From Candidatus Heimdallarchaeota archaeon (GTDB taxonomy: Archaea > Asgardarchaeota > Heimdallarchaeia > Heimdallarchaeales > Heimdallarchaeaceae): a stretch of 64,000 bases of DNA. The position numbers and the translations under genes were made by a program. Where the stretch lies: the NCBI GenBank assembly GCA_030668875.1, contig DAOVER010000005.1, forward strand, positions 26,597 through 90,596. Reading direction: 5' to 3'. Each line of letters opens with the position of its first letter. Positions within the stretch are counted from its first letter, which is position 1. Below the pieces are notes generated by a model. That model was not told where the DNA came from, ran no database searches, and saw nothing but the letters and a program-made list of their open reading frames with translations. Shown piece after piece: positions 10,944 through 58,823 of the stretch.

Positions 10944-11495
10944 ATGAACCCACATGTTGAAGTGAAATTTAGAGATTATGATATCTATAAACTAGTTATT
11001 TGTGGTCCCGGTAAATCAGGTAAAACATCTATTTGTAAAAGATTAACTCAGAATACTTTTCAAAAGAAGTATCAACCAACTTGTGGGGCTGAATTTCACA
11101 GTTATTCATTCAAAACATCTAAAGGTAAAGCAGTGGCTCTTTTCTACGATATGGCAGGACAAAAGCGTTTTGGTGTTGTAAGGAATCTTCTCTATTCAGG
11201 TACTAATGCTGCAGCAATTGTTTTTGACATATCAAACAAAGAATCCTTTCGAGAATGTGCAAAATGGATCAGAGAACTAAGAACTCAAAACAAAGAATTA
11301 GACATCACTATTGTAGGGAATAAAACAGATTCTACGCGAGATGTTGAGAAAATTGATGCTGAGAGAATTAGTCGCAGACTTGGTTGTAGATACGTTGAAA
11401 CTTCAGCTTTAACCGGCGATGGTATAGGAGATTTAGTTAAAACTTTGGTAAGTTCTGCTATTATTAGTTCTAATAAGAAATTTGTAGGGAGATAA
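10944..11495 (+). CDS. Ras-superfamily (Rab/Ras-like) small GTPase
   Basis: G1 GPGKSGKT, switch-I Thr (QPTCGAEF), G3 DMAGQ, G4 GNKTD and G5 ETSAL. There is no C-terminal Cys for prenylation. Confidence 0.85.
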   Translation: MNPHVEVKFRDYDIYKLVICGPGKSGKTSICKRLTQNTFQKKYQPTCGAEFHSYSFKTSKGKAVALFYDMAGQKRFGVVRNLLYSGTNAAAIVFDISNKESFRECAKWIRELRTQNKELDITIVGNKTDSTRDVEKIDAERISRRLGCRYVETSALTGDGIGDLVKTLVSSAIISSNKKFVGR

Positions 11496-23943: not shown

Positions 23944-25221
23944 ATGGGTGGAATTAAGAGAAAAAGAAAGAAAATCGAAACGCCAGGTCATCCTTATGAT
24001 AAAGCTCGCTTAGAGAGAGAACTCCCTCTTGTTGGTGCTTATGGTTTAAGAAACAAGCGCGAATTATGGAAAGCAAGAACTATTCTTTCTACAGCTAGAC
24101 AACAAGCTAGAGGCTTACTAGCTCTTGACCCTGAAATTAGAAAAGTTAGAGAACAAGAACTTCTTTCAAGACTCTCTCGTTTTGGTATGTTATCTCAGAA
24201 TAGCAATCTTGACTCTGTTTTAGCACTTGAAATTAAAGTCATTCTTGAAAGAAGACTTCAAACAATTGTATTCAGAAAAGGTTTAGCATCCTCTCCGTAC
24301 CAAGCTCGTCAATTTATTGCTCACAGACACATAGCTATTGGAACTGGTGTTGCAACATCTCCTAGCAGATTAATCACAATAGCTGAAGAGGAGATAGTCA
24401 ACTACGCTCCCCGTTCTCCACTGAATGATCAAACTCATCCTTCGCGACCTCAAGCACCTCCTGCTTTTGATGCGGGGCAACCTGAGAAAAGGGAAGAACA
24501 TAAGCGTGAAAGAACTGGAAGAGATGGCAAACCTAGAAGGAAAGAAGCTCCAAAGAAGGAAACTAAACCAGGAGTTAAACCAAAACCAGAGGTAAAGAAG
24601 GAAACTCCAAAGAAAGAAGCTCCAAAGAAGGAAACTAAACCAGGAGTTAAACCAAAACCAGAGGTAAAGAAGGAAACTCCAAAGAAAGAAGTTCCAAAGA
24701 AGGAAACTCCAAAACCAGAGGTAAAGAAGGAAACTCCAAAGAAAGAAGTTCCAAAGAAGGAAACTCCAAAACCAGAGGTAAAGAAGGAAACTCCAAAACC
24801 AGAGGTAAAAAAGGAAACTCCAAAACCAGAGGTTAAAACAAAGCCAGAAGTGAAGAAAGAGGTTCCAAAGAAGGAAACTAAACCAGAAGTTAAAACAAAG
24901 CCAGAGGTAAAGAAGGAAACTCCAAAACCAGAGGTAAAGAAGGAAACTCCAAAACCAGAGGTTAAAACAAAGCCAGAAGTAAAGAAAGAAGCTCCAAAGA
25001 AGGAAACTAAAATCTCTGACCTTGACATCTCTTTGATAAAAGGTATTGGTGCAAAAACTGCCATGCTTCTCAAAGAAAATGGCTTTGATACTGTTGGTAA
25101 GATTGCTAAGGCAACTACTGAAGAACTTTCCAAAGTTCCAGGTGTTGGTCCCGCTACTGCATCAGCTATGAATAGTGAAGCTAAAGTTTTGCTTTCAAAG
25201 AAAGCTGAGGATAAGAAGTAG
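23944..25221 (+). CDS. rps4: 30S ribosomal protein uS4 with a C-terminal extension of about 260 aa (K/P/E tandem repeats plus an HhH module)
   Basis: The N-terminal ~165 aa is a normal archaeal S4 (PGHPYDKARLERE...S4 RNA-binding domain). Then come KPEVKKETPKKE repeats and ISDLDISLIKGIGAKTAMLLKENGFDTVGKIAKATTEELSKVPGVGPATA. Confidence 0.9.
   Translation: MGGIKRKRKKIETPGHPYDKARLERELPLVGAYGLRNKRELWKARTILSTARQQARGLLALDPEIRKVREQELLSRLSRFGMLSQNSNLDSVLALEIKVILERRLQTIVFRKGLASSPYQARQFIAHRHIAIGTGVATSPSRLITIAEEEIVNYAPRSPLNDQTHPSRPQAPPAFDAGQPEKREEHKRERTGRDGKPRRKEAPKKETKPGVKPKPEVKKETPKKEAPKKETKPGVKPKPEVKKETPKKEVPKKETPKPEVKKETPKKEVPKKETPKPEVKKETPKPEVKKETPKPEVKTKPEVKKEVPKKETKPEVKTKPEVKKETPKPEVKKETPKPEVKTKPEVKKEAPKKETKISDLDISLIKGIGAKTAMLLKENGFDTVGKIAKATTEELSKVPGVGPATASAMNSEAKVLLSKKAEDKK
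24544..25008 (+). repeat. in-frame coding tandem repeats inside uS4 (72-nt unit x2, 57-nt unit x2, then shorter KPEVKKETP variants)
   Basis: gaagctccaaagaaggaaactaaaccaggagttaaaccaaaaccagaggtaaagaaggaaactccaaagaaa recurs with a 72-nt period at 24544 and 24616. Related units continue to about 25008. Confidence 0.9.
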
Positions 25222-25228
25222 GTGAAGT

Positions 25229-25714
25229 ATGATGAGTAAAAAAGAAGAAACTAAAGTTAAATCTGAAGAAAAGTCTGAAGAAAAAACTGAAACAACAGAA
25301 TCTTCGCGACCTGAGCGACCAAGAAGAAGAGAATCTAAACACGGGATAGCACATATCTTTTCAAGCTATAATGACACAATCATCCACATAACAGACATCT
25401 CTGGAGCTGAAACATTCAGCCGTAAAAGTGGAGGAATGTTTGTGAAAGCAGACAGAAATGAATCAAGTCCTTATGCAGCAATGAAAGCAGCAAACGCAGC
25501 AGCACAAGAATCGCAAGCAAAAGGAATATATCAACTGTATGTAAGATATAGGGCACCAGGAGGACATAAAAATAGAACTCCAGGACCAGGAACACAAGCA
25601 GCATTACGTGCACTGAAAAGATCAGGAATGAGAATAATAAGACTAGAAGATGTAACTCCATTGCCACACAATGGTTGTAGGAGAAAGGGTGGCCGTAGAG
25701 GCCGTAGAATGTAG
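25229..25714 (+). CDS. rps11: 30S ribosomal protein uS11 with a K/E-rich N-terminal extension
   Basis: [18 protein letters not shown] ... [23 protein letters not shown]. Confidence 0.9.
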
Positions 25715-25765
25715 TTTTCATCTTTTTCCATTTCCTTATTTTTACTTTCATTTTTGTAATGTTTG
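25715..25765 (+). terminator. possible oligo-T archaeal terminator after uS11
   Basis: Several T tracts (ctttttcc, tatttttac, catttttg) immediately follow the stop codon. Confidence 0.3.
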
Positions 25766-25805
25766 GGTTTATATCCCATTTTCTTTATTATAATTTGAAG
25801 AGTTT

Positions 25806-26252
25806 ATGACAATTACTAAAGCTAAAATATTTGCATGTGAAATCTGTGGGAAAGAGTTTGGAAGAAAGGACAATCTAGGAAGGCACAAAATAACAGTTCA
25901 TTCCAAATCACAGAAGCATAAATGTCCAAAGTGCAATTTTTCTTCAACAAGAAAAGATAGTCTTGATAAACATATCAAAGAAGTTCACAGTGAAGTAAAG
26001 CAATATTCTTGTAAAATGTGTGGAGAAAGGTTCACACAAAAAGGGAGTATGGAAAGGCATATAGATTCCTCTCATAAAGACGTTTTTTCTTTTGCATGTC
26101 CCAAATGCAATTCAATTTTCTCAAGAAAAGATAGCTTGTTACGACATATCAGAAGTGTGCACGAAGGTATAAGACCTCACAAATGTTCAGAATGTGGTAA
26201 AAGCTTTCAACATAAACATCATCTGAAGGATCACCTAATTTTAGGTCATTGA
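25806..26252 (+). CDS. C2H2 zinc-finger protein, 5 tandem fingers
   Basis: There are five C-x2-C-x12-H-x4-H units, for example CEICGKEFGRKDNLGRHKITVH and CSECGKSFQHKHHLKDHLILGH. The period is about 28-29 aa with linkers such as EGIRPHKC. Confidence 0.9.
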   Translation: MTITKAKIFACEICGKEFGRKDNLGRHKITVHSKSQKHKCPKCNFSSTRKDSLDKHIKEVHSEVKQYSCKMCGERFTQKGSMERHIDSSHKDVFSFACPKCNSIFSRKDSLLRHIRSVHEGIRPHKCSECGKSFQHKHHLKDHLILGH

Positions 26253-26261
26253 GGGAAGGAA

Positions 26262-27425
26262 ATGAGTAACTCGGAAAAAATAATAATGCGACCAACTTGT
26301 GAAATCTGCGGTCTTAGTTTTTCAAGAAAAGACAGTTTGTATAGACACAAACGATCAGTTCATTCAGAGTCAAAGAAATATAGCTGTACAGAATGCAATC
26401 TCACATTTTCTCGTAAAGATACACTGGATCGTCACATCAATGATGTCCACAAACAAATAAGGAAATATATTTGTACCATATGTGACGAGAAGTTCAAACA
26501 AGCGGGTGCTCTAAAAAGACATATCCAAACAATGCATGAGAAGAATATTAGTTATGAATGTCCAAACTGTGATGCAGCATTCCCGCGTAAAGACAACCTA
26601 GACAGACACATAAATGCCGTTCATTTAAACCTCCGACCCCACATTTGCCAGGAATGTGGTGCAGCTTTCAAACTACCTGATCACCTTAAGCAGCACATTA
26701 TTTCCATACATACTGACCGGCGTCAATATGTTTGTGATGAATGTGGTTTTGCTTTCAAACTTCGTCAACATCTAAATGATCATGTCAAAGTTGTTCACCT
26801 AGGTCTTCGTTCTTATGCTTGTGAGGAATGTGATTCTTCTTTTGCTCATGCTCGTGCTCTTAAGCAACACATTATTTCTGTTCATACCGATGAACTTCCT
26901 TATGTTTGCGAGAAATGTAAGAGAGGATTTGCAGATCCTAGTCATCTATATAGGCATGAAAAAGCTGAAGCTTGTTGGTTTACAACTACTACTGCCTACA
27001 AATGGGAAGAGCTTTGTAAAGAGATAGCTGAGATTCTTTTAGAGGAAAAGAATTGGGAGTGGAAACCTACTATAGAAACACCTGAGTTGGTTGAACAGAC
27101 TAGAGTGCAGCCTGAGATTGTTATCTATAATGATGATGGTACGATGGATTTTATCGATGCTAAGAGGTCTACTTATGCTATTTTCAAGGAGAAGGATCTG
27201 GTAGTTTATCCTAAGGTGGCTAGGAGGGTGGAGTTCTGGTGCCTCTACGGTAAAACCAAGGGGATATTTGAAGAGGAGGAAGGGGTGGAAGCGAAATCAA
27301 GTGAAGAAATCATTGGCAAACTAGAAAAGGAAGATTCGCATGATGGACAGAGAGTAAGGAATCTAATAATGAAGATTAGTTTATTGAAAAAGGGAATAAG
27401 ATTTGAAGGACAACAGACACTGTAG
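26262..27425 (+). CDS. C2H2 zinc-finger protein with 8 tandem fingers and a C-terminal domain of about 150 aa carrying a PD-(D/E)XK-like motif
   Basis: Seven C-x2-C-x12-H-x4-H fingers plus a terminal C2HC-like finger (CEKCKRGFADPSHLYRHEKAEAC). The C-terminal region has KWEELCKEIAEILLEE ... VQPEIVIYNDDGTMDFIDAKRS. Confidence 0.85.
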   Translation: MSNSEKIIMRPTCEICGLSFSRKDSLYRHKRSVHSESKKYSCTECNLTFSRKDTLDRHINDVHKQIRKYICTICDEKFKQAGALKRHIQTMHEKNISYECPNCDAAFPRKDNLDRHINAVHLNLRPHICQECGAAFKLPDHLKQHIISIHTDRRQYVCDECGFAFKLRQHLNDHVKVVHLGLRSYACEECDSSFAHARALKQHIISVHTDELPYVCEKCKRGFADPSHLYRHEKAEACWFTTTTAYKWEELCKEIAEILLEEKNWEWKPTIETPELVEQTRVQPEIVIYNDDGTMDFIDAKRSTYAIFKEKDLVVYPKVARRVEFWCLYGKTKGIFEEEEGVEAKSSEEIIGKLEKEDSHDGQRVRNLIMKISLLKKGIRFEGQQTL

Positions 27426-27464: not shown

Positions 27465-28283
27465 TCAATACCCATACCTTGAGGGTAAGCTTGATCTGTA
27501 ATCATAACTTCTAAACAAGTTTTCAATTAACCGAGGGATAGATTCGCCCCTAAAATCTCTAACTGTGTCTATTATATCGTCATCTTTACCCTCTAACAGC
27601 TTCAACCAAAGCTGAGGTTTGTATCTTACAATGTTGGAAAGCATCCAAGAACCTACAAATGCATCAAATGGGTTATAACTTCCTATCACATCAACAAATG
27701 AAGGAACAGATCTCTTTTCCAAATAATCAGAAATATTTGGAAAGCCCTTGAGATTGTCTTCAGCTAAAAGAAGTAGTAAGCTGTAAAAAACACCTTTATC
27801 ATAGACTTTAGCATGCATATACGGTCTGTTTTCTACATATTTGCCTTTTTTCGAAAGACCATGATGAGTGAAGAAAAACACCTCGTCTTTCATTTCATAT
27901 TCAAGACAGAACACTCCTTTGACACATTGTAATAATGCATAGTATTCAACAAGTGGGCTAGAGTTTTCATCCATTTTTAAGGCAGTTTTAAACATCTCAT
28001 AGATCTGTTGAAAATAGATACTAGAATAAATAGCTATTTCAGTATAATCGATTTCAAAATCCCTAGTTTTCACTAGATTTGCTTTCTTATGGATATTTTC
28101 TAGAAGATTAATTTTTGCATCTTTACGCTCTCTTTCAGTCTTATGGATTCTTCTAGATTTCATTTGCTCTTCTTTTGAATCACAGGTTGGATTGAACCTG
28201 GTAATCAATTTTTTCTTAAGATAATATGGAATAGAGTATTTCTCAAGATTATAGAGAACGATTTGGTGATACTTGTCAATCAT
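27465..28283 (-). CDS. hypothetical protein, YaaC-like (weak), partner of the PLD nuclease gene
   Basis: Starts 3 nt after the upstream PLD gene stop. The C-terminal SWMLSNIVRYKPQLWLKLLEG resembles the YaaC-family ...RY.P..W... region. Confidence 0.35.
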   Translation of the reverse strand: MIDKYHQIVLYNLEKYSIPYYLKKKLITRFNPTCDSKEEQMKSRRIHKTERERKDAKINLLENIHKKANLVKTRDFEIDYTEIAIYSSIYFQQIYEMFKTALKMDENSSPLVEYYALLQCVKGVFCLEYEMKDEVFFFTHHGLSKKGKYVENRPYMHAKVYDKGVFYSLLLLLAEDNLKGFPNISDYLEKRSVPSFVDVIGSYNPFDAFVGSWMLSNIVRYKPQLWLKLLEGKDDDIIDTVRDFRGESIPRLIENLFRSYDYRSSLPSRYGY

Positions 28284-28285
28284 TA

Positions 28286-29068
28286 TTAAACCTCAGTTTT
28301 ATTAATTTTCAATCGGATTGGTTTCAGTTGTCTATAGCAAGAACGGCAGGCAGGTTTATTTGTTGAAATACTTACCTCAGCTCCACATATGTGACAATAA
28401 TTTCCCTTAACAAAACCTCTTCTCTTATCTTTCCAACAATCCTTACACCTTATAACGTGGGTCTCTATTGCATCAAGAGCTATTTTTTTCTTGCAAACTA
28501 TGCAAAAACCCAGTTCTTCTTGATTTTCAGCATAAACAGTAAAGTGTTCTCCTTCTTGTTTGAATTGTAGCTCAATCGCCTGTTTACCATTATCAATAGC
28601 TCTAATTTCTTCTCCATTTCTAACAAGAACTGAGATATATTTATCAATCAATTCTAAGTTAGGCAAATCGTCTTCACCTTCGAAATCGACTCCAATCTCA
28701 AAGTTATCCTTTAGTGAATGGTAATAAAGATTCATTGAAGTAGTTAATGCTCTATCTCCATTATAATAACACTTTGCATGAAGATTAGGTACAAGCCAAA
28801 TTTCATCAGAATAATCGTATAGCTTATCTCTTATAGCTTGTGTTTTCGTCAACCTTTTCTCAGCTGATTTATCATCTGGTTTTCTTGTAATAAAGACAAT
28901 TTGCAGATCTTTGTTTTGTTCTATTAAACTATCCATTAACCTAGACCACTGACCATCTTTTTTTTCAAGTTGAATATAGGGGCTAACTATATGTATGTGT
29001 TTAGTAGCCCTTTCAACTATTTCCTCTATAGCCCCAAATATAGAGCCAGTGCTTGTTAGAATTTTCAC
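28286..29068 (-). CDS. PLD-superfamily (single HKD, Nuc-like) nuclease with a C-terminal four-CxxC zinc ribbon
   Basis: NLHAKCYYNGDRALTTSMNL is an HxK...D...SxN motif. The C-terminus has CIVC...CKDC...CHIC...CRSC. Confidence 0.6.
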   Translation of the reverse strand: MKILTSTGSIFGAIEEIVERATKHIHIVSPYIQLEKKDGQWSRLMDSLIEQNKDLQIVFITRKPDDKSAEKRLTKTQAIRDKLYDYSDEIWLVPNLHAKCYYNGDRALTTSMNLYYHSLKDNFEIGVDFEGEDDLPNLELIDKYISVLVRNGEEIRAIDNGKQAIELQFKQEGEHFTVYAENQEELGFCIVCKKKIALDAIETHVIRCKDCWKDKRRGFVKGNYCHICGAEVSISTNKPACRSCYRQLKPIRLKINKTEV

Positions 29069-29122: not shown

Positions 29123-29139
29123 GGGATTTATTGTTTGAT
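29123..29139. repeat. left copy of the 17-bp direct repeat flanking the IS (gggatttattgtttgat)
   Basis: An identical 17-mer occurs at 30142..30158. Confidence 0.9.
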
Positions 29140-30141
29140 GTTAACTCAACTAAGATCGGTTACACTTTTGGGCAGGATATCTTTGGGAGGTTGGTTCATA
29201 AATCTTTCACCTGGAGTTTGGAGGTTGATTCCTTGATGAGGGCGGAAGAAGTTGTAATAGTCCCTATAGCGCCGGAGGTCAGCGTTACAATAAGCTAATC
29301 CCAGCCGCTTCAGCTCTCTGACGGTTGTACCATGCTGGCGCTCTACTTTCCCACAAGTCTCAGGGTGGAAGAAACGGCTGCGGATATGCTTTATTCCTTC
29401 CTGAGCGAGCACGCGGGTGAAGGTACTTGTCCCTCCTCGCATAGAGTGGAACTGTGCTCCATTGTCTGTTAGTACTTGCTGGGGACGCCTATAAAGCTGG
29501 AAGCAGTGGTGTAACCTTGTCAAGATCTCTTGCTGGCTAATAGGATGGGTGTAGAGTCTACTCTCCAGGAGGAAGCGGGAGTGGTCATCAATGATGGTTA
29601 AAAGATAAAGGTGTTGTCCTTGCTCTTCCACCCAGAAGGGACCTTTGATATCCAGTTGCCAGAGGTCATTGGGTTTGGGTCGTTCGAATCTCTTTCTCGC
29701 CTTCTTCTTGTACGGTTTCTTTCTCCAAGGAGGTTCTCCTTCTCGTTGGAGAGTCTTCCAGATGGTGGTGTGGGAGAGCACCAAGCCTTTCCTCTTGAAC
29801 CATTGCTCAGTCTGCATGATGTTCAAGCCATAGGCTCGTCTCAAGGTGAGGATCTTCTTCTTTATCTGTGGTGTTACCTTTCTCCTTATGCATCTTGGTC
29901 GTCGAGAGCGTTCTTCCCACCATTTTCCCTTGGGGTTCTCACGATAACGTCTTAACCAGGTGTAGACGAATTTTCTTGAGACCATGTACTGTCGAGCAAG
30001 GTGGGTGATAGGTGTTCTTTTCAAAGCCTTTTTAACTACGCGTTTCCTTATAAGTGTCGGGTTACTGTTCGGGTTCATTTAACTCATTTACCCACGGTAA
30101 CCCCTCTTATTTAACTGTCACCAATGTGGGTGGAGTTAACA
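29140..30141 (-). mobile_element. IS481-like insertion sequence (about 1.0 kb, single transposase ORF)
   Basis: Imperfect terminal inverted repeats: (T)GTTAACTCAACTAAGATCGG versus the reverse complement TGTTAACTCCACCCACATTGG. It is flanked by a 16-17 bp direct repeat. GC content is clearly higher (about 50% in lines I counted) than the flanks (about 30-35%). Confidence 0.85.
29146..30078 (-). CDS. DDE transposase (HTH plus integrase-core rve domain), IS481-family-like
   Basis: LWQLDIKGPF (first D), IIDDHSRF, LTDNGAQF (second D), HPETCGKVERQH (E) and YNFFRPHQGI. Confidence 0.9.
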   Translation of the reverse strand: MNPNSNPTLIRKRVVKKALKRTPITHLARQYMVSRKFVYTWLRRYRENPKGKWWEERSRRPRCIRRKVTPQIKKKILTLRRAYGLNIMQTEQWFKRKGLVLSHTTIWKTLQREGEPPWRKKPYKKKARKRFERPKPNDLWQLDIKGPFWVEEQGQHLYLLTIIDDHSRFLLESRLYTHPISQQEILTRLHHCFQLYRRPQQVLTDNGAQFHSMRGGTSTFTRVLAQEGIKHIRSRFFHPETCGKVERQHGTTVRELKRLGLAYCNADLRRYRDYYNFFRPHQGINLQTPGERFMNQPPKDILPKSVTDLS

Positions 30142-30158
30142 GGGATTTATTGTTTGAT
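30142..30158. repeat. right copy of the 17-bp direct repeat flanking the IS
   Basis: Identical to 29123..29139. Confidence 0.9.
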
Positions 30159-30175: not shown

Positions 30176-31246
30176 TCATCGTTGTCTTATAACATAATTT
30201 ACAATTGTTTCAACCTCTTTTGAAGAAAATGTTTCTTCGAAATAAGAGATATAATTCACTATTTCTTTAAGTGAAAGAACTTTCACAAACTGAAATTGCT
30301 CTTTAGGTTTAGCATTAGTCATTAGAAGCACACTACGAATAGCGATTTTCTTTTTTCCCCAATGATGAGAACTAAGACGAAGAGAACCACTAGAAACAGA
30401 GCTATTTAGAAGAGTGAAAAGAGCAAAATTTGCACGTCTAATTTGTTTAACTGGTGAAAACAGGTTCAGATTTTGTAGAGATTTCTCGCTCCAGTTTTTA
30501 GTTTCAAGTAAAAACACTCCTGAAGGACCAACAACAAGATGGTCAACTTGTATAGATAATATTTTATCATTTTCTTTTCTATTGCAAATTGGACGATTAA
30601 AAGACATCTGAAGATCATTGATAACAGTGAATGTATCTGGAAGTTTCTTTAGTTCTTCAGTAACTTGTTGTTCTCCTATGGTTCCAGAAATTAGGGTGTA
30701 GTTATCATCTAAAATTCTATTTATGAGATTGATTCGGTTAGTATAATTTTGAGATCGTTTTGATATTAAGGTTTCAAAGTTGGTTTCACGATAGGTTACA
30801 TCGCGTTCTAGATTCTTAATTTTCTTGGAAAGATGACGAAAGGGTTTTTCAACTTCATCTATAAAATAGTGTGTCAACTTGTCAAGTCTTTTAGAAAGTT
30901 GATTGAGTTTAATTTTGTAAAATAGGAGCTTGAAAGGATTCTTAGTCGATGAGGAATATTGAATGATCTTAGAAGGGATTAGTTCTTTTTCTTCATTAAG
31001 TAATTTTGTTTGATTAGATATCATCTCTTGATATTGATTTGTGAGTAGAGTATAATCGGATTTAAGTTGACTAATTTCAGCAAGAAGTTTCTCTTTTTGC
31101 TGTTCTTGATGCTGTGAAATAGAATTTTTCCAAGTTTTCTTAAAAGTCTGTATTGATTCAAGAGTTGAAAACTCTCTGATGTTATTTTGTTTTAAGACAT
31201 ATAGAAGATGATTAAGAGAACTAGAATTACCATATATGCGAGCCAA
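30176..31246 (-). CDS. NERD (nuclease-related domain) protein with a long N-terminal coiled coil
   Basis: GTIGEQQVTEELKKLPDTFTVINDL...ILSIQVDHLVVGPSGVFLLETKNW is the NERD signature. The N-terminal ~190 aa is heptad-rich. Confidence 0.8.
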   Translation of the reverse strand: MARIYGNSSSLNHLLYVLKQNNIREFSTLESIQTFKKTWKNSISQHQEQQKEKLLAEISQLKSDYTLLTNQYQEMISNQTKLLNEEKELIPSKIIQYSSSTKNPFKLLFYKIKLNQLSKRLDKLTHYFIDEVEKPFRHLSKKIKNLERDVTYRETNFETLISKRSQNYTNRINLINRILDDNYTLISGTIGEQQVTEELKKLPDTFTVINDLQMSFNRPICNRKENDKILSIQVDHLVVGPSGVFLLETKNWSEKSLQNLNLFSPVKQIRRANFALFTLLNSSVSSGSLRLSSHHWGKKKIAIRSVLLMTNAKPKEQFQFVKVLSLKEIVNYISYFEETFSSKEVETIVNYVIRQR

Positions 31247-31400
31247 AGAAATACCTCCATTCCAACGGAATATTCAATCAAACAATCTTAATAAAACTTG
31301 TTATGAACAGGTATTCGTCCATTTTATAATTTAGACCGTAGAATGTAGTTTTACTCATTCACATTTTTCTTTTATTTTTGTAATATTCTTATATACTGAA

Positions 31401-31859
31401 ATGTTAGACTGTTTCTCAATGGGTCTCAACATCGATTTATCCAAACTTGATTACGCCTTTCATCGTAAACCTTTGCTTATAGGTGGGAAAGTTATGGAAT
31501 ATTATAATCTACGTAAAGCAGGTGATGATGTAGACTTTGTTGTAGCTTTAGAAGACTATGAAGGCTTAAAAGAAGCCTATCCAGAACCAGAATACCAGAG
31601 GGGCTTATTTGGTGATCTTGGAGTAACAGTTGATGAATCAGAGGTTTGGAAATGTATATGTCTTTTCGAATATAAATTCTTATCAGAAAAAGCATTAGAA
31701 ATGGAAGAATATCTAATCATATCATTAGAGAAATTGCTCTTTTTGAAAGTTTTAGCAATGCACAAAAGAAAATATCGAAAAGATGTAAAACTGATAAGGC
31801 AAAAGATTCTGGACAATAAATATGATGACGAAGAGTGGAAGGAGAAATATATGAAATAA
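31401..31859 (+). CDS. hypothetical protein, possible minimal nucleotidyltransferase fold
   Basis: LLIGGKVMEYYNLRKAGDDVDFVV resembles the GG...R...D.D motif of small nucleotidyltransferases (weak). Confidence 0.3.
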   Translation: MLDCFSMGLNIDLSKLDYAFHRKPLLIGGKVMEYYNLRKAGDDVDFVVALEDYEGLKEAYPEPEYQRGLFGDLGVTVDESEVWKCICLFEYKFLSEKALEMEEYLIISLEKLLFLKVLAMHKRKYRKDVKLIRQKILDNKYDDEEWKEKYMK

Positions 31860-31885
31860 CATTGTAGAAAGGAGCTTACTTCTTC

Positions 31886-32335
31886 TCAATTCTCCTTTAT
31901 CGTACCGGTCAATTCGAGTAATTGTTCATATTGCCAAACGCGTTCCTTAGTATCAACTTTAGCAGCATAATTTGCTGCATGAACAGCGTGCCCTGCAACA
32001 TGGACAGTAGCAGTTGCATGACCAGCTGCACGTGCAACTGTACAAGCTACAGCGTTATCAACTTCTCTAGCCGCGGCATGAGCAGCAAATGCTGCAGAGC
32101 GTACCTTACCTACAGAGATCTCCCCATATGTCCATGAATGTGCTGCTTCTATCGCTTTCCTCGGTCGGTCATCATTGGGAAATTTATCTTCAAAATAGGA
32201 TAACACATGTTCCACACAATAAATCGCCCAGATCACCAATGATCTTTTTTCCATTTTGCTTGTAATCTCTGCAATCTTCTTCTTAAGGTCGCTCTCGGAA
32301 TTAAGGGCAGAACTATCCTCACTCATACTTACCAT
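31886..32335 (-). CDS. Ala/His-rich helical protein of the family usually annotated as putative immunity protein (Imm-5-like)
   Basis: WAIYCVEHVLSYFE...DDRPRKAIEAAHSWTYGEISVGKVRSAAFAAHAAAREV...ARAAGHATATVHVAGHAVHAANYAAKV matches the W..CAEHVL/D.RPR.AIEAA/AAHAAAR/AAGHA pattern I recall for that family. Confidence 0.45.
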   Translation of the reverse strand: MVSMSEDSSALNSESDLKKKIAEITSKMEKRSLVIWAIYCVEHVLSYFEDKFPNDDRPRKAIEAAHSWTYGEISVGKVRSAAFAAHAAAREVDNAVACTVARAAGHATATVHVAGHAVHAANYAAKVDTKERVWQYEQLLELTGTIKEN

Positions 32336-34421: not shown

Positions 34422-36215
34422 ATGGGGTACGAAGCAGTCACTTTTCTATTATTTGCCGCTTATTTGCCGCTTGTTTGGATTCCAATCCGTTTAGCAATCA
34501 AGAAACAAACAGGATACAAAATCGCTCCTGTAGTTCTTGCTCTCTTTCTGATGAGTGTATGGATAGTCGGTTTTATCGGTCGAACAATATTAGTTACAGC
34601 TGTTGAGCATTTAATTTTCGCAGGATCGCTCTCTATTATAGCAGTAATTGTCTTCGAGATAGTTCGAGGTAAAACTAGGTTTCTTAGGAAATTCAAGACA
34701 AGAAGACGTTTGACAGGACTTATCATAATTGTTCTTATCATTGTTGTTGGTGGGAATTCATTATTGGGTATAAACAAAACCATGCAAAGTGCAAGATATT
34801 TTGAGAATATGGTAACCTATGATTCTACCAATTTGCCATTTATTGTTCTTGATGAAGTAAATGAGATAGATAAGAATATGCGACTTGTTACTAAAGAATT
34901 TGCAATAAGCAAAGCAGAACAAAACAAGGCAGTTTTTGGTTCTAACGCTGAATTAATGGAAGCTAATGTCATACTGGTTAACGATTCTATTTACTGGTGT
35001 ATGATTTACGCACCTAAAAGTTCAGCACAATTCTGGACTCCAGGACAATTTAACCATGCTTGGGGATTGATATTGGTTGAAGTTAACAACCCAAACGCTG
35101 AACCTGTAACAATTAATTTTCCAGAAGGAGAGTTTAATTATGCTGATGGTTTATGGCGCAACCACGATATTGTTCTTAAGAATTACCGCCGGGACCAAGG
35201 AGCAAAATACTGGCGTTCATATCCAGCTTGGACAGGTACTGAATGGGTTTACGTTGTTACTCGAACTACAAGAGATGTTTATGGAGCATGGTATTCCGAT
35301 GGGATAGACATTCTTGATATTAAAACAGGCGGTTTAATCACGCATTATACAGCTGAGGAATTAGACACAACCCCCAACTATATCATGCAGATTTATTCTG
35401 AAAGATTGGTTGAAGAAAAATGGATCTGGAACTGGGGTGATAAGAGAGATACGACAGCAGAAGGCAACATACGTTTCTTTAGTGGTTTTCCATATTATAG
35501 TTCAGATAGGATTGGTTTTTATGGAGACGGAGTTGAAGATATCCGTTATGTGAAATATCAAAATTCTACAATAGCTTTCTTTGCCACACATCCTTTTGAT
35601 TCTTCAGAGACTCTCGCAGGTATTGGTGTAATGACAAAAAATGATGTTACGTTTTATGACCTTAGAAAACGAGGATTCATTTCAGCTAATACAGCAGCTA
35701 CGCTAGCTGAGGGGCAGCTTACTGCACCAAATGAAGGTGGTTACATTGTTCAAATGCCAGTACCATATACACTTAACACTTCTATCGGATTGAGATTATC
35801 TTGGTTCATACCCATCTATTGGCAAAGTGGCGCCATACAAAGATTATCTCACGTCTGTGTTATTGATGCCTTAGACTCAAGTTATGTAGCTATAGCTGAA
35901 GCAGAGGGACTATCGGGTTCTCAAGTAGTAAAAGAAGCACGCTTACAATTCAAGTCCTTTTTCACAAGTGAAATTGTCGAAGACCAATATGAAATTGCAC
36001 AAATAGAAGATGTTGGAAGCTACGTAGAAAATGGCGATAGTATTTTTGTTTATCAATTGAATGATAGTCGAACAATACGTTGTTCACAAGATTATCTGAA
36101 TGCAACTCATTGGAATCAAGTTGTTCTAGCGGATATAGGAGACGATATACGATATACATTCACTGAAGATGACGAAGGAATATTTTGGGCAACAGAGTTC
36201 TTTATTTTAACTTAA
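34422..36215 (+). CDS. membrane-anchored protein with a large extracytoplasmic domain (597 aa), function unknown
   Basis: About four N-terminal hydrophobic helices, then a W/Y/G-rich soluble region. No motif recognised. Confidence 0.55.
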   Translation: MGYEAVTFLLFAAYLPLVWIPIRLAIKKQTGYKIAPVVLALFLMSVWIVGFIGRTILVTAVEHLIFAGSLSIIAVIVFEIVRGKTRFLRKFKTRRRLTGLIIIVLIIVVGGNSLLGINKTMQSARYFENMVTYDSTNLPFIVLDEVNEIDKNMRLVTKEFAISKAEQNKAVFGSNAELMEANVILVNDSIYWCMIYAPKSSAQFWTPGQFNHAWGLILVEVNNPNAEPVTINFPEGEFNYADGLWRNHDIVLKNYRRDQGAKYWRSYPAWTGTEWVYVVTRTTRDVYGAWYSDGIDILDIKTGGLITHYTAEELDTTPNYIMQIYSERLVEEKWIWNWGDKRDTTAEGNIRFFSGFPYYSSDRIGFYGDGVEDIRYVKYQNSTIAFFATHPFDSSETLAGIGVMTKNDVTFYDLRKRGFISANTAATLAEGQLTAPNEGGYIVQMPVPYTLNTSIGLRLSWFIPIYWQSGAIQRLSHVCVIDALDSSYVAIAEAEGLSGSQVVKEARLQFKSFFTSEIVEDQYEIAQIEDVGSYVENGDSIFVYQLNDSRTIRCSQDYLNATHWNQVVLADIGDDIRYTFTEDDEGIFWATEFFILT

Positions 36216-42527: not shown

Positions 42528-43247
42528 TCATTTGTTTGTCTTAGATTGAGGTTTGTTCTTTGCAAGTTGTTCTTTTTTAGAAACAGTTGCTGTCTTTAAA
42601 GGTTCAATTTTTTTGCTCTTTTTCTTTGTATGAGTTGCTCCAGAGGGAGTTGCTCCAAATATTCTACTAAGCAATGAACCAAAAGCAAAAGATACCATAA
42701 AATACCAGAGAGTAAAAGGCGCTTTTGAGTATCCATGATATTTTAGGGGTAAAGTTGTATCCACTACACCAGATGGGTATGATATACCAGATACTTGGAA
42801 CCATGGATTTCCTATCCAGGGAAAATCACCCAGATTAAAGGGTAACCATGCATAGTTATGATCAGTTGTAAAAGCGGTTCTAAGTATAGCAAATAAAATC
42901 AAGAAGGGAATGGTTGTGATAAGCATTGGTTTCATTCTTTTGAACATCATGGAGGATTGTAATTTCTTTACTCTTTCTTCATCTCTTTTGACACTCAACC
43001 ATAATTTCTTATCAGCGGTTTGCATTGCTGTTTTTCTCTTTTGATTCCAATCGTTAACTTTCTGCATACTTTCTTTTAATGCATCAGTATCAAGTATCAA
43101 TCGAGTAGCCAGTGTAGATATGCTTGCAAGCATGATTGAAGTTAGGGCTATAAATAGTGCAGAGTTAGGAAGTTGATTCCATCCCATACTAGTTATCCAT
43201 TCTGCAATTCCTGTAAACCATGGGTCCCAAAATGCCATATAAATCAC
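42528..43247 (-). CDS. DUF106/EMC3/TMCO1-like (Oxa1-superfamily) membrane protein
   Basis: TM helix, then coiled coil (KVNDWNQKRK...ERVKKLQSSMMFKRMKPM), then TM helices. Sits at the conserved position next to eL34 and cmk. Confidence 0.6.
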   Translation of the reverse strand: MIYMAFWDPWFTGIAEWITSMGWNQLPNSALFIALTSIMLASISTLATRLILDTDALKESMQKVNDWNQKRKTAMQTADKKLWLSVKRDEERVKKLQSSMMFKRMKPMLITTIPFLILFAILRTAFTTDHNYAWLPFNLGDFPWIGNPWFQVSGISYPSGVVDTTLPLKYHGYSKAPFTLWYFMVSFAFGSLLSRIFGATPSGATHTKKKSKKIEPLKTATVSKKEQLAKNKPQSKTNK

Positions 43248-46808: not shown

Positions 46809-47267
46809 TTAGTTAGAGCTGCTTAGTTGAACTTTGCCACCAGCAGACTCTATTTTCTTAATTGCTCTTTTACTAGCTTCAGCAACTACAATATTCATCG
46901 CAGTGTTGACTTCGCCTTGAGCAAGAAGTTTAGTATAACCAAGCTCTGTCAAATTGACTTCGTATTTAGCACCCTTCTTTGTGACTTTTCCTTCACGTTC
47001 GAGGGTTGTGACCATTGAGTCTAAATGAGAGACATTGATTACAGTGTTGTCTTTTATGGATTCTCGAGGGCGGATGAAACCATGTTTTCCAATTGGAGGA
47101 CGCAAACCTTTAATCGTTTGAATCCAGTGATGTGACTTAGGAGCAGCTTTACCTACTCCCCCGCGCATACCACTTTTTCTGTGGGTTCGTACAACTCCCC
47201 AACCATGGGTTCTGTATCCGCGACGTTTTCCGGTTTTCTTCTTAGTTCTAACTGTCATTTTGATCAC
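46809..47267 (-). CDS. rpl15: 50S ribosomal protein uL15
   Basis: GKRRGYRTHGWG...HRKSGMRGGVGKA. Confidence 0.85.
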   Translation of the reverse strand: MIKMTVRTKKKTGKRRGYRTHGWGVVRTHRKSGMRGGVGKAAPKSHHWIQTIKGLRPPIGKHGFIRPRESIKDNTVINVSHLDSMVTTLEREGKVTKKGAKYEVNLTELGYTKLLAQGEVNTAMNIVVAEASKRAIKKIESAGGKVQLSSSN

Positions 47268-47752
47268 GCCATCCTTACAATAAGCTCGTTTATAGCTGAG
47301 CCTCTATAACCTAAATCTCCGCCATCTGCAAAGCTTCTTTTAACAGATTTGTAACCTTTTCTTGCAGGATGTAATCTGAAAAATTTCTTTAGCTTAGGAA
47401 CCTTTTGAATTATAGTTTCTCCTGTCATTAGAGCTTTTGAAAGTGACTTTATGGTTGGATATTCAGTATTTTCCTTAACAAACTTATCAGTCAATCTAAT
47501 TTTTCCTTCAGACTCTCCTCTTTTCCTTAGGACATGTTCTAAAGCTTCTTGGTTTATTTCACCCCAAGTTACATGATCTTTTGCACGCTTTAGCATACCA
47601 AGGGTTGAAGGAGTATTAAGAAATAATGACATATAGTTTGTCTTACGAATGTTTAACATATCCAAATTTTGTTGAACCTTATAGAAGACGTTAATTCTTC
47701 CTCTAATTCTAATAACTGCCAACAATTTTAGAGTATCTTGTTTTTCACTCAT
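47264..47752 (-). CDS. rpl30: 50S ribosomal protein uL30
   Basis: LLAVIRIRGRINV...LDMLNIRKTN. The start is set to the ATG at 47752; the ORF track extends it to 47782. Confidence 0.85.
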   Translation of the reverse strand: MSEKQDTLKLLAVIRIRGRINVFYKVQQNLDMLNIRKTNYMSLFLNTPSTLGMLKRAKDHVTWGEINQEALEHVLRKRGESEGKIRLTDKFVKENTEYPTIKSLSKALMTGETIIQKVPKLKKFFRLHPARKGYKSVKRSFADGGDLGYRGSAINELIVRMA

Positions 47753-47766
47753 GTTAATCACTTTCT

Positions 47767-48408
47767 TTATCTTCGTGTCCAATCGTATGGAGCCATGATT
47801 GAATAGGTGTTTTTCAAAGCTTCAAAAGTTGCTTTTGCAAAATTTGAAGTAGTTCGTGTTTCACCAAATGTTTTGCTCCAAACATCAGATATTCCTGCTA
47901 ATTCTAGAACAGTTTTAGCAGTGTTTCCAACGACTAATCCTAAACCTCTGGGTGCTGGATAAAGAATAACCTTTGTAGACCCTACCTTACCTGTTGATTT
48001 GAAAGGAACAGTGTGTGGCCCTCCACAGTTGCATTCCCACGAACCGCATCCTCTACGAACAGGTCTGATGTTCAATTTGGCATTAACCATCGCTTTCTTA
48101 ATAGCTGGACCTATTTCTTTGAGTTTTGCTTCACCTACACCAACATAACCGTTTTTGTTTCCAACAACAACAGTTGCACGGAATTTACGTTTTCGACCCG
48201 CGTCTGTTTGTCTTTGAACAAGGCTTATATCAATCACATCGTCCTCTAGGGTGTCACCAAGCAGAATATCAATTATTTCAGGTTCTGCTAAAGGAAGACC
48301 TTGTTGGAATAGTTCATCGATAGTTGTAATTCTACCATCTTTTACTAATCTTCCAACACGAGTTCGAGGTTCCCATTCTTCTAAATCTAAAAACATTTTA
48401 TTGCTCAT
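47767..48408 (-). CDS. rps5: 30S ribosomal protein uS5
   Basis: [24 protein letters not shown] ... [10 protein letters not shown]. Confidence 0.9.
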
Positions 48409-48418
48409 CTTTTATACC

Positions 48419-49066
48419 TCATTCCATTGAATCAATTTTTGATTTTGTCTCTTCAAAATACTCGGTTATCTTTTCAGGTTTCTTACTTGCTGCTAAGTAT
48501 TTGGCAAAGTATCTGTTATACTTGTTTTGATCTTCTTTAGCTAAGAGTTTTGCATATGATTGAATATGATCCCCTCTAATTCTATCTTCAGAAGGCAACA
48601 TAGTTTCATTGCAAGGAACATCAACACCTGCGTCAACAACGCCTTTGAGGGTTGCAAAGATTTTTGTTCCAGAGTATGCGGTGTGTGTTCCGATATCCAG
48701 AATAGCATCCTTGATTTTAGCTTTCAAAGCTCTTTTTCCAGCAAGATAGCCTGTAAGGTACGATGCAGGCAAATTGGATGTTGCGATATCCCAACCATAT
48801 TTTTTGAGATCACCTGATGTTATCTGAATGTAAGTTTGATCTCCACCAATTTTTGACATAACAAATTGTATCAATACTTGTTTATTGGATGCTCTTGTTA
48901 CAACCCTTATTTTACCTGATTTCAATAATCTTTTACGCTGACCATAATCAGTTTTAAGCTCTCTTCGTCTTCTAAAAGGCACTCTATACAGAGGTCCTTG
49001 CCTTTTCATCTTTTGTTGTAATTTTCTTCTCTTCTTTGGTCCTCTTTTACTTCTTCGACTTGACAT
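48419..49066 (-). CDS. rpl18: 50S ribosomal protein uL18
   Basis: PFRRRRELKTDYGQRKRLLKSGKIRVVTRASNKQVLIQ. Confidence 0.85.
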   Translation of the reverse strand: MSSRRSKRGPKKRRKLQQKMKRQGPLYRVPFRRRRELKTDYGQRKRLLKSGKIRVVTRASNKQVLIQFVMSKIGGDQTYIQITSGDLKKYGWDIATSNLPASYLTGYLAGKRALKAKIKDAILDIGTHTAYSGTKIFATLKGVVDAGVDVPCNETMLPSEDRIRGDHIQSYAKLLAKEDQNKYNRYFAKYLAASKKPEKITEYFEETKSKIDSME

Positions 49067-49079
49067 AACTTAACACCTC

Positions 49080-49544
49080 TTATAATTCAGGAAGTCTCTT
49101 CTTAGAGAGACCGTGTTCGGCTATATAATTTCGGAGATATCTCACAGAACGGAATAAACCACCTTTTGACTGTAAATACAGTTTTCGGTAGGTTGTAGTA
49201 TCAATGTATCCTTCGTCCCTTAATTTCTTCAAGAACTTTCTCTGGGCACGGATTTTCCCAATCCATCTATCTTTCTTTGAAAGTCTGGAATATTTTGGAC
49301 CTTTACGGCTACCAGTACCAATTCTTTGACCTCTCCTTTTCTTTGCTGCTACAGCTCGAGCTCGTCCTCTACTAACACCTTGAATTTTCCTTTTCCTAAT
49401 ATCGCCATCATCAATATGACGTTTTACATCTTCTCTAGTAATAGCTAGAGAAAGATCGTATAGGCTATCAGGATCAATTTTAACTCTATTGGATCCAACT
49501 TTGAGGATTTTTGCTGCTAATCTTCTTTGTGTTTTAACGTCCAT
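49080..49544 (-). CDS. rpl19e: 50S ribosomal protein eL19
   Basis: MDVKTQRRLAAKILKVGSNRVKIDP. Confidence 0.9.
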   Translation of the reverse strand: MDVKTQRRLAAKILKVGSNRVKIDPDSLYDLSLAITREDVKRHIDDGDIRKRKIQGVSRGRARAVAAKKRRGQRIGTGSRKGPKYSRLSKKDRWIGKIRAQRKFLKKLRDEGYIDTTTYRKLYLQSKGGLFRSVRYLRNYIAEHGLSKKRLPEL

Positions 49545-49559
49545 AATTCTAACCTCACA

Positions 49560-50105: not shown

Positions 50106-50271
50106 TCACAGTAGAATGTTACCTTATTTTGGTTAACCTATCATCTGGCTGTAGTTTTTAATACTTTTTATTGGTAAGAAAAAATGAAGTGAAAAGTTAT
50201 ACTAAACACAAATTTGGGGAAAAAATTAAAAAATTTGCAAAGGTTTAAAATGTTTTAAGAGGAAATCAATA

Positions 50272-51651: not shown

Positions 51652-51697
51652 AAAATCAAGAAACATTAAGAAAAATAAAAAAAGAAGAATTGGAAAC

Positions 51698-52648: not shown

Positions 52649-52662
52649 TTTTCTTTACCTCC

Positions 52663-52830: not shown

Positions 52831-52839
52831 ATCCGTCAC

Positions 52840-54934: not shown

Positions 54935-54945
54935 TTATATTTCAC

Positions 54946-55362: not shown

Positions 55363-55371
55363 GATACCACC

Positions 55372-58696: not shown

Positions 58697-58823
58697 ATTC
58701 TCACAAACCCAATCTATACTAGTAGAACTTGTTTCTCTTTTGATTCATTGTATTACTTGGATATTCAATTTGAGATGCAGCAAGGGACAAAAATTTATTA
58801 TAATTGTCTTTCCCTTTTTACTC

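Follow-up and report, generated by a model that had tools for sequence, protein, structure and literature searches.

The DNA analysed here, called the window, is a 64,000-nucleotide stretch of a Candidatus Heimdallarchaeota archaeon genome, in which two adjacent zinc-finger genes lie directly downstream of uS13, uS4 and uS11. The second gene, ZF-B, encodes eight C2H2 fingers joined to a predicted PD-(D/E)xK nuclease domain. Judged from the sequence, the full statement that ZF-B is a natural zinc-finger nuclease and the constant gene of a homing-like insertion at uS11 is evenly poised between right and wrong. Its parts differ in strength. The architecture of fingers plus a nuclease fold is very probable, and it is somewhat probable that ZF-B acts as a sequence-specific DNA endonuclease. 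A function in homing or mobility at uS11 is a real possibility that falls short of an even chance.

Tandem Zinc Fingers of Eukaryotic Type

The two genes are separated by 9 nt, and GGGAAGGAA is found just before the start of ZF-B.

25806 to 26252, + strand: ZF-A, 148 aa, five C2H2 fingers without a nuclease domain (Pfam 3.4e-27)
26262 to 27425, + strand: ZF-B, 387 aa, eight fingers fused to a predicted PD-(D/E)xK nuclease; the constant gene of the cassette
26298 to 26975, + strand: array of the ZF-B fingers (aa 13-238), of which 1-4 differ among lineages and 5-8 are nearly invariant

A regular-expression search counted five fingers in ZF-A and eight in ZF-B, all with the pattern C-x2-C-x12-H-x4-H and an exact 29-aa period; the one exception is the last finger, which is C2HC (H-x5-C). 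The Pfam family zf-C2H2 (PF00096) was matched in five stretches of ZF-A (E = 3.4e-27, 93.7 bits) and eight stretches of ZF-B (E = 2.2e-43, 144.7 bits), both above the gathering threshold of 25.2 bits. When the entire 64 kb window was scanned in all six frames, the pattern occurred 12 times within these genes and once, as an isolated chance match, outside them; such clustering is far beyond chance. The single-sequence AlphaFold model contains strand-strand-helix (beta-beta-alpha) units in fingers 1-3, with a pLDDT of 56-80 per 10-residue block, and has low confidence in the other fingers. A preliminary description of this DNA had reported the two open reading frames, their spacing, 5 and 8 fingers and a period of about 28-29 aa, and on these points, as on the profile match, it was borne out; the beta-beta-alpha fold that it expected appears in the model for fingers 1-3. 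The fingers are genuine eukaryotic-type tandem C2H2 fingers in a Heimdallarchaeota genome.

Neighbouring fingers are joined by linkers of 7 aa (e.g., SESKKYS, LNLRPHI), the length seen in Krueppel-type proteins. Resemblance to TGEKP is confined to the linker between fingers 7 and 8 of ZF-B, which reads TDELPY here and TDEKPF in orthologues. Instead of the TGEKP-like linkers and H-x3-H spacing by which Krueppel-type proteins are recognised, the window proteins have mostly non-TGEKP linkers and H-x4-H spacing.

The likeness among fingers had been ascribed to recent internal duplication, a claim that finds no support. Since the fingers are on average 41% identical to one another (maximum 68% in amino acids and 68% in nucleotides), and since all 19 of 19 orthologues have exactly eight, the array must be considered old. 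Among the helix positions singled out for comparison in the preliminary description, per-position entropy in the alignment of fingers 1-4 marks -1 and +6 as invariant and +3 as variable. The same four fingers display a mosaic pattern of dS. In principle, eight fingers could read up to about 24 bp. The fingers of ZF-A match those of ZF-B by position (68% for the first pair, 59% for the fourth), and the gene, with 4-5 fingers each time, occurs in 12 of the 26 loci that have zinc-finger genes. ZF-A is best described as an optional, nuclease-less paralogue of ZF-B fingers 1-5.

A Predicted Nuclease Domain Joined to the Fingers

ZF-B extends 150 aa past its fingers, and this tail, absent from the preliminary description, directly adjoins the last finger, without a linker.

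26976 to 27425, + strand: predicted nuclease domain of ZF-B, aa 239-387
27006 to 27008 (E249), 27111 to 27116 (P284-E285) and 27156 to 27164 (D299-A-K301), + strand: candidate catalytic residues of the PD-(D/E)xK signature

For the tail, the single-sequence model was of no use (pLDDT about 30), and structure prediction was repeated from a protein alignment, with only one of five AlphaFold models being confident. The tail is predicted to have the alpha-beta-beta-beta-alpha-beta core fold of PD-(D/E)xK enzymes, and the catalytic signature is complete: strand 2 begins with an acidic residue (in P284-E285), strand 3 contains (D/E)-x-K (D299-A-K301) and helix 1 has a glutamate (E249). Among 43 members that share little else, the proline, the two acidic residues and the lysine are each present in 43 of 43, and the helix-1 acidic residue in 40. 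The tail matched nothing in Pfam at E<=10, its profile matched none of the sequences in the PDB, and a scan of viral contigs found no copy. The domain belongs to a separate, previously unnamed family that is closest to the AF1548 and Mrr-like folds.

Tails of this family, which has about 80 other members, are also joined to other C2H2 arrays, to HTH arrays, to PF18780 homing-endonuclease-associated repeats and to DUF4379 fingers, and all members that carry an organism name are from Asgard archaea. In three distant members (P0034, P0037 and P0038), the finger spacing is the canonical H-x3-H and the linkers are of the TGEKP/TGERP type. The surroundings of other members also resemble insertions, with P0053 interrupting a nuo operon and P0071 placed among MCM, primase and small ORFs. 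At the complex-I insertion of P0053 (L048), the best pair of flanking sequences is a weak one of 23 nt at 74%, which is no convincing repeat. All parts of the protein are under purifying selection (omega 0.05-0.2).

ZF-B might instead be a DNA-binding regulator or chromatin protein, in which the nuclease-like domain serves dimerisation, DNA clamping or partner binding. This is unlikely. A catalytic signature that is invariant in 43 of 43 members at low overall identity would not be expected of a degenerate domain, and a regulator does not readily account for homing-endonuclease-associated repeats on family members, nor for a gene that is missing in close relatives and sits in a repeat-flanked insertion.

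Insertion at the 3' End of uS11

The order uS13, uS4, uS11 directly before the zinc-finger genes is as the preliminary description gave it. From the repeats and the comparison of alleles, the 3' end of uS11 is read as the site of a 5.6 kb insertion that the zinc-finger genes lead.

25699 to 25763, + strand: left flanking direct repeat, comprising the final 16 nt of uS11 (its stop codon at 25712-25714) and a T-rich tract up to TTTTTGTAATGTT
25764 to 25805, + strand: putative promoter-like region of the zinc-finger genes with the TATA-like box TGGGTTTATATCC; occupied and empty alleles diverge here
31333 to 31387, + strand: right flanking direct repeat, comprising a displaced uS11 3' end fragment (CCGTAGAATGTAG) and a T-rich tract, followed by the g31401 promoter

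The repeat search paired 25699-25763 with 31333-31387 (families D3 and D5), with an exact core of 17 nt for which the chance expectation is about 6e-5. The right junction in the window is the same as in the empty alleles L024 and L038 and as the right junction of L006. Most loci with zinc-finger genes have GGGTTTATAT(T/C)C upstream of the first of them, and the g31401 promoter stands in its place in empty alleles; the promoter function of 25764-25805 is inferred.

Direct repeats of the uS11 3' end also bracket the cassette in L003-L007, L015, L016 and L020. With ZF-B directly followed by the first repeat copy, L003 and L015 have nothing but zinc-finger genes between uS11 and that copy. Across loci, the repeats span 17-90 nt, and the left end of the right-hand copy varies from -8 to -30 nt. 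No flanking repeat was found in several lineages that have the genes (L002, L009-L014, L017 and L019). The duplicated target-gene end and the displaced fragment at the far junction are typical of integrase-mediated integrative elements. A tyrosine or serine recombinase, also typical of them, was not found between the direct repeats of L003, L015 or the window, and the only recombinase-like gene in the window belongs to a separately flanked rve insertion sequence.

The genes behind ZF-B in the window are as follows.

27465 to 28283, - strand: YaaC-like protein gene (Pfam YaaC 7.6e-11)
28286 to 29068, - strand: PLD-family (DrmC-like) nuclease gene with a double zinc ribbon (Pfam PLDc_2; PADLOC DrmC 4.9e-11)
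29123 to 30158, - strand: rve-family insertion sequence, a secondary insertion (ORF 29146-30078, Pfam rve 2.7e-15, GC 0.48)
30176 to 31246, - strand: NERD-domain protein gene (Pfam NERD 1.1e-13), present in L019 too

The insertion sequence has its own perfect 17-nt flanking repeats (family D8). Across loci, YaaC-like, PLD/DrmC-like, NERD and HIT-like genes and an insertion sequence are found behind ZF-B, and the PLD-like, NERD and YaaC-like neighbours differ from genome to genome. A YaaC-like gene adjoins ZF-B also in L002, L004, L007 and L008, in either orientation, and a PLD-family gene follows it in L005, L006 and L019.

Such neighbours invite the view of ZF-B as a defence nuclease of the restriction type whose gene heads a defence island, with finger shuffling that retargets it to other foreign DNA. 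DrmC-like PLD, NERD, YaaC-like and Imm5-like neighbours in a variable island speak for it, as do the mosaic evolution of fingers 1-4 and the presence/absence polymorphism. Nevertheless, there is a low probability of this being the case. ZF-B has no match in PADLOC (PADLOC-DB 2.0) apart from a lone, spurious 16.9-bit finger match to typeIV_Cas8, and PADLOC returned nothing meaningful for ZF-A. The smallest cassettes contain no methyltransferase or other self-protection partner, and eight fingers would specify sites too rare for the restriction of diverse viruses. In addition, all lineages have kept fingers 5-8 and the contact residues at -1/+6, an indication that the target is constant rather than changing.

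Presence, Absence and Possible Exchange among Relatives

The uS11-ZF gene order is repeated in 25 other assembled contigs from different samples, and in these the synteny that the preliminary description asked about is kept. The site downstream of uS11 is occupied in 25 loci and empty in 6, and the empty ones belong to close relatives. Pairs of occupied and empty alleles resolve precisely, in two downstream contexts. Presence/absence polymorphism at one fixed site in related genomes is characteristic of homing endonucleases.

Recent exchange between diverged genomes is suggested by L003 and L005, which are 98-100% identical over about 1.3 kb, from the 3' half of uS11 through the ZF-B fingers. 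In this pair, fingers 1-4 have a dS of 0.00, compared with 1.5-2.9 for the flanking genes g33611 and g32503. This is one clear case of the pattern expected of co-conversion, in which chimerism of a contig is possible; the contigs are metagenome assemblies that may be misjoined at repeats. No covariation between codon variants at the uS11 3' end and finger contact residues was visible by eye.

Proposed Mechanism and Alternative Explanations

In the proposed mechanism, the fingers would direct the nuclease to a single specific site in the DNA, which probably lies within or close to the 3' end of uS11 and its terminator region. A break or nick made there by ZF-B would stimulate recombination, through which the cassette may be copied, kept or excised in a homing-like manner. 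The uS11 3' end is repeated at the right edge of the cassette, and this copy could serve as the downstream homology arm, so that both arms would be derived from the highly conserved uS11 region. The cassette could in this way enter genomes with differing downstream genes. ZF-A may compete for the target site or protect it. A target guessed from the recognition code, GNGGNAGNGGNG, was discarded: it has 1 match, inside the ZF-B coding sequence, against an expectation of 0.4, and an equally good result came from 31 of 100 shuffles. The occupied allele keeps every sequence of the empty allele, owing to the flanking duplication, and immunity of the kind in which insertion destroys the site is therefore not evident. 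The empty alleles could also have arisen by repeat-by-repeat deletion from one ancient insertion, with no mobility.

A further reading takes ZF-B as a TFIIIA-like RNA binder in rRNA or ribosome biogenesis, co-expressed with uS13-uS4-uS11 and carrying an RNase-type PD-(D/E)xK domain. It is quite improbable, given that close relatives with the same operon lack the gene, that the Promethearchaeota orthologue lies away from ribosomal genes, that sister fusions carry DNA binders (HTH, homing-endonuclease repeats) and that the locus is a repeat-flanked insertion.

The preliminary description had seen eukaryote-style transcription factors in the position of rpoD, perhaps guiding the neighbouring nucleases. 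The fingers are indeed genuine and eukaryote-like, and no RpoD domain was found in 40 ORFs of the window. The idea of an occupied slot fails, however: six relatives without zinc-finger genes have neither rpoD nor a zinc-finger gene after uS11, and the operon thus ends at uS11 in this clade irrespective of the zinc-finger genes. The neighbouring nucleases are not conserved partners, and the constant nuclease is fused in cis, in the same polypeptide, which leaves little of the suggested targeting module. The transcription-factor reading overlooks both the nuclease domain and the insertion nature of the locus, and its probability is very low.

An assembly chimera or eukaryotic contamination can be dismissed almost entirely, as the preliminary description had supposed: base composition is continuous (GC 0.34-0.39 against 0.35 for the window), introns are lacking, the junction from uS11 to ZF-B recurs in 25 other contigs, and an identical protein (P0029) is known from a contig of 104 kb.

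Relation to Known Systems

Zinc-finger nucleases are commonly seen as a product of engineering, and the searchable literature yielded no account of a natural protein in which a C2H2 array is fused to a restriction-type nuclease. In contrast to the engineered enzymes, which combine a C2H2 array with the FokI cleavage domain, ZF-B is natural and archaeal and has a nuclease of a differing family, eight fingers, H-x4-H spacing and no linker after the last finger.

The protein of R2 non-LTR retrotransposons has 1-3 C2H2 fingers, which are N-terminal and are followed by Myb, reverse transcriptase and a C-terminal restriction-like endonuclease. ZF-B differs in being archaeal and in having eight fingers, with neither a reverse transcriptase nor an implied RNA intermediate. 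The repeats at its flanks, 17-90 nt in length, speak for recombination and not for target-primed reverse transcription.

Phage Seg/Mob enzymes and I-TevI are free-standing homing endonucleases with modular DNA-binding repeats. As in these, a predicted nuclease is joined to an extended modular DNA-binding region, and the gene lies beside highly conserved genes, is polymorphic for presence and absence, and shows near-identical tracts in genomes that have otherwise diverged; PF18780 repeats occur on sister proteins of ZF-B. Unlike these, ZF-B has a eukaryote-type C2H2 array as its DNA-binding module, and its cassette duplicates the 3' end of the target with no obvious disruption of the site.

Krueppel/TFIIIA-type proteins share the finger motif, the 7-aa linkers and the tandem arrangement and differ in finger spacing and linker sequence. 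The usual partners of eukaryotic poly-zinc-finger arrays are KRAB, BTB or SCAN effector domains, and ZF-B is joined to a nuclease.

Target selectors of Asgard Tn7-like elements, TniQ proteins with C2H2 arrays, have been described, including in Heimdallarchaeota (bioRxiv 10.1101/2025.07.27.667033). They too have tandem eukaryote-like arrays, which choose the insertion site of a mobile element. The TniQ fusions belong to Tn7-like transposons with TnsB and TnsC, whereas ZF-B is a nuclease fusion whose smallest unit lacks a transposase.

Significance

The end of the uS11 gene is an insertion hot spot that gathers defence-like cargo, and the DNA-reading module of the ZF-B family has been swapped repeatedly in nature. 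It is tentatively proposed, as a rather doubtful generalisation, that Asgard archaea have a natural modular and potentially reprogrammable nuclease family, in which one PD-(D/E)xK domain is combined with interchangeable arrays (C2H2, HTH, homing-endonuclease repeats, treble-clef fingers) and the C2H2 members are homing-type elements with their own downstream homology arm. If active, ZF-B would interest genome engineers as a site-specific nuclease that is small (387 aa), made of a single chain and built of protein alone. Together with the TniQ report, an active ZF-B would indicate that the long finger arrays of Asgard archaea point to the targeting of mobile elements and not to the control of transcription, with a bearing on the origin of eukaryotic zinc-finger families. 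If the wider proposal is true, long TGEKP-linked C2H2 arrays served selfish elements as targeting devices in eukaryotes' archaeal relatives before becoming the largest of the eukaryotic transcription-factor classes.

Zinc finger array and nuclease tail of ZF-B

ZF-B is a eukaryote-type array of eight C2H2 fingers fused to a domain of the PD-(D/E)xK fold, and the catalytic signature of this domain is conserved intact throughout the family. The preliminary description of tandem C2H2 fingers in two adjacent ORFs after uS13, uS4 and uS11 was borne out by the coordinates, the finger counts and Pfam (zf-C2H2, E=3.4e-27 for ZF-A and 2.2e-43 for ZF-B). The ribosomal genes lie directly upstream of the pair, and the two ORFs are separated by 9 nt.

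25806-26252, + strand: ZF-A, ORF of 148 aa with 5 fingers
26262-27425, + strand: ZF-B, ORF of 387 aa with 8 fingers, then a 150-aa tail

The fingers follow the pattern C-x2-C-x12-H-x4-H and recur exactly every 29 aa; the final finger is C2HC. Scanned in all six frames, the window has the motif in these two genes only, save for one stray match, and their base composition is continuous with the flanking DNA. The array is not a recent internal duplication, as had been proposed, because the fingers in the window resemble one another only moderately (mean identity 41%, maximum 68% for both amino acids and nucleotides). The finger count is exactly eight in 19/19 ZF-B orthologues; in their alignment, fingers 1-4 keep helix positions -1 and +6 unchanged and vary at +3, and fingers 5-8 are nearly invariant. 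ZF-A was found in 12 of the 26 loci with ZF genes, has 4-5 fingers that pair position by position with fingers 1-5 of ZF-B, and never carries the tail.

The 150 aa past finger 8, overlooked in the preliminary description, gave no Pfam match even at E<=10 and no match in a PDB sequence search. This tail is the best-conserved part of ZF-B (mean column entropy 0.42 bits, 19 orthologues). In the AlphaFold model obtained with 34 homologues (pLDDT 79.9, pTM 0.76; 1/5 models confident), E249 is placed in helix 1, P284-E285 opens one strand and D299-A-K301 closes the next, so the catalytic motif residues sit where the PD-(D/E)xK fold demands them. In one orthologue (L008; 1267-2430, DAOVET010000073.1), an in-frame stop replaces Trp239, right at the boundary of finger 8 and the nuclease domain. 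The gene could naturally encode a shortened protein of fingers alone, it could be a pseudogene, or the stop could be a sequencing error.

Tail family across Asgard archaea

With a profile built from the tail alone, an exhaustive HMMER search through 1.84 billion representative proteins gave a family of 83 proteins at E<=1e-3. The tail is nearly always C-terminal, and the part that precedes it is a tandem array, of which there are several kinds.

N-terminal partners of the nuclease tail
C2H2 fingers, in many cases with the canonical spacing H-x3-H and linkers of the TGEKP/TGERP type
HTH_23/sigma-70-region-4-like repeats
PF18780, "Homing endonuclease associated repeat"
DUF4379 treble-clef fingers
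DUF6011 with another Cys/His repeat
Unannotated ~57-aa repeat

All members with a named source are Asgard (Heimdallarchaeota, Hodarchaeales, Hermodarchaeota, Promethearchaeota), and no relatives of the tail were found in a scan of viral contigs. In the alignment of divergent tails (n=43), the Pro, the next acidic residue, the second acidic residue and the Lys are each present without exception (43/43); the acidic residue of helix 1 is kept in 40/43. Conservation of these signature residues in divergent, differently fused tails argues for a catalytically competent domain that was repeatedly joined to different DNA-reading arrays.

One Heimdallarchaeota assembly, CAZJUB01, contains two kinds of member, L017 with C2H2 fingers and P0100 with PF18780 repeats. 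The C2H2-nuclease member P0053 (Hermodarchaeota JBHLLB010000087.1) lies within a ~5.5 kb insertion (L048, 1720-7253) that splits a complex-I operon between nuoI-like and nuoJ-like genes and also carries an RNase_Zc3h12a/PRORP-like gene; a search around this insertion gave no convincing flanking repeat. P0071 is surrounded by MCM, primase and many small ORFs, with a DUF4379 protein adjacent. Eight large Asgard proteins of 589-919 aa (P0080, P0082, P0085, P0088, P0098, P0102, P0112, P0115) combine the tail with 4-8 copies of the ~57-aa repeat (rough consensus YDWSDP..-.VE.W...FY...GRSPT..E....FGGF..YL.R.G.TWN.FL...G.P); the two that were scanned, P0080 and P0112, gave no Pfam match.

Occupied and empty alleles at uS11

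All data derive from metagenome assemblies. Scanning one genome per species yielded 19 loci, all from Heimdallarchaeota MAGs (AB_125 among them), whose ZF-B proteins share 59-77% identity with that of the window. The synteny with uS11 proved to be conserved: ZF-B follows uS11 in 19/19 loci, with uS13 and uS4 upstream wherever the contig extends far enough. The distant Promethearchaeota orthologue P0034 (tail 45% identical) has no ribosomal genes nearby. A 597-aa protein without Pfam match (34422-36215, +) is strongly conserved (70-94% identity) and syntenic in most Heimdallarchaeota loci with a long enough downstream flank.

A metagenome scan with uS11 revealed six close relatives, their uS11 82-95% identical, that lack a ZF gene at this position; in them uS11 is followed directly by the conserved genes g31401, g33611, g32503, g22162 or an Imm5-like gene. 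The absence of rpoD held for the 40 window ORFs examined, none of which has an RpoD domain, but its replacement by the ZF genes is ruled out, since none of the six empty relatives has rpoD directly after uS11 either.

The 3' end of uS11 holds a repeat-flanked insertion with occupied and empty alleles, whose comparison shows direct repeats of this end bracketing the ZF cassette. The last 26-31 nt of uS11 (repeat length ~90 nt in L004) recur, with a T-rich tract after them, 2.28-2.35 kb downstream in L004, L007, L016 (AB_125) and L020; upstream of this second copy there is no uS11 homology. L016 equals the empty alleles L024/L038 plus 2.33 kb, and the other three equal the empty allele L028 plus ~2.34 kb. 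These four cassettes all measure 2277-2352 nt despite differing cargo (YaaC-like; a 300-aa unknown protein; ZF-A with HIT-like).

A more sensitive search found further right-hand copies in L003, L005, L006, L015 and the window, where the copy at 31336-31352 matches 17/17 nt (chance expectation ~6e-5), with partial identity on through the T-rich tract; a separate repeat search paired 25699-25763 with 31333-31387. Past this junction lies g31401 promoter sequence, the same as in the empty allele L038 and in L006. Given the flanking uS11 repeats and this match to the empty allele, the window holds a 5.6 kb insertion made up of ZF-A, ZF-B, the YaaC-like gene, the PLD/DrmC-like gene, the rve IS and the NERD gene. 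The ZF-B stop codon marks the start of the first right-hand repeat in L003 and L015, and only ZF genes separate this copy from uS11; L015 has two successive right-hand copies, which suggests that cargo accreted serially. The smallest cassette units contain no recombinase.

The rve-family IS (29123-30158; ORF 29146-30078; GC 0.48 vs 0.35 in the window) has a perfect 17-nt direct repeat, GGGATTTATTGTTTGAT, on either side and represents a secondary insertion within the island. The cargo and neighbours at 27465-29068 (-) and 30176-32335 are reminiscent of defence: YaaC-like and NERD-domain genes stand with a DrmC-like PLD nuclease that bears a double zinc ribbon, and just beyond the right repeat lies an Imm5-like immunity protein.

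Evolutionary dynamics of the locus

ZF-B is a functional gene, as dN/dS is 0.05-0.2 in every part of it. Synonymous divergence along the locus is a mosaic, and mosaic exchange has occurred around ZF-B. Between the window and L019, dS is 0.18 for uS11, 0.23 for g33611, 0.36 for the tail core and 1.06 for fingers 5-8, and is saturated for fingers 1-4 (46% identity). Between L003 and L005, fingers 1-4 are identical (dS 0.00), with dS of 2.9 for g33611 and 1.5 for g32503; their common block (98-100% identity) runs from the 3' half of uS11 through the fingers and stops inside the 3' end of ZF-B, beside a PLD-gene indel.

Other features of the window

10944-11495, + strand: Ras/Roc small GTPase (2.9e-37)
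23944-25221, + strand: uS4 with a ~190-aa Lys/Pro/Glu-rich tandem repeat (KPEVKKETP; DNA repeats 24540-25011), then a C-terminal helix-hairpin-helix domain (HHH_5, 4e-13)
42528-43247, - strand: EMC3/TMCO1-like membrane protein
46809-55740, - strand: main ribosomal protein operon (uS17, uL14, uL24, eS4, uL5, uS8, uL6, eL32, uL18, uS5)
50272-51651, + strand: 459-aa ORF interrupting this operon
54158-54934, - strand: uL24 with a C-terminal HHH_5 extension (1.8e-13)
58740-59261, + strand: Auto_anti-p27 zinc-ribbon protein

The GTPase, EMC3/TMCO1-like and Auto_anti-p27 genes are eukaryote-like genes typical of Asgard archaea. With HHH_5 in both uS4 and uL24, at least two ribosomal proteins of the lineage have helix-hairpin-helix tails. 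In other Heimdallarchaeota loci too, the uS4 extension is conserved; many MAG contigs start within or just past it, and the probable reason is that assemblies break at the repeat.

Known systems and possible mechanism

C2H2 arrays in Asgard archaea are not themselves new, since they were previously described in Tn7-like TniQ proteins (bioRxiv 10.1101/2025.07.27.667033). A literature search covering part of the journals turned up no natural protein in which a C2H2 array is fused to a PD-(D/E)xK nuclease without a reverse transcriptase. Engineered FokI zinc-finger nucleases have the same architecture as ZF-B; R2 retrotransposon proteins likewise join fingers to a restriction-like endonuclease but add a reverse transcriptase. 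Together with free-standing homing endonucleases that carry modular DNA-binding repeats, these are the closest analogues.

A guess at the ZF-B target from the recognition code failed. A single ancient insertion followed by recurrent repeat-by-repeat deletion could mimic mobility. Against a homing-like model stand the occupied alleles, which have no obvious immunity, the repeat end-points, which differ between loci, and several ZF-plus lineages with no detectable repeat. Under the proposed model, ZF-B would cut DNA at a specific site, the break would drive the cassette to spread in a homing-like way, to be maintained or to be excised, and the right-hand uS11 fragment would act as a portable homology arm.
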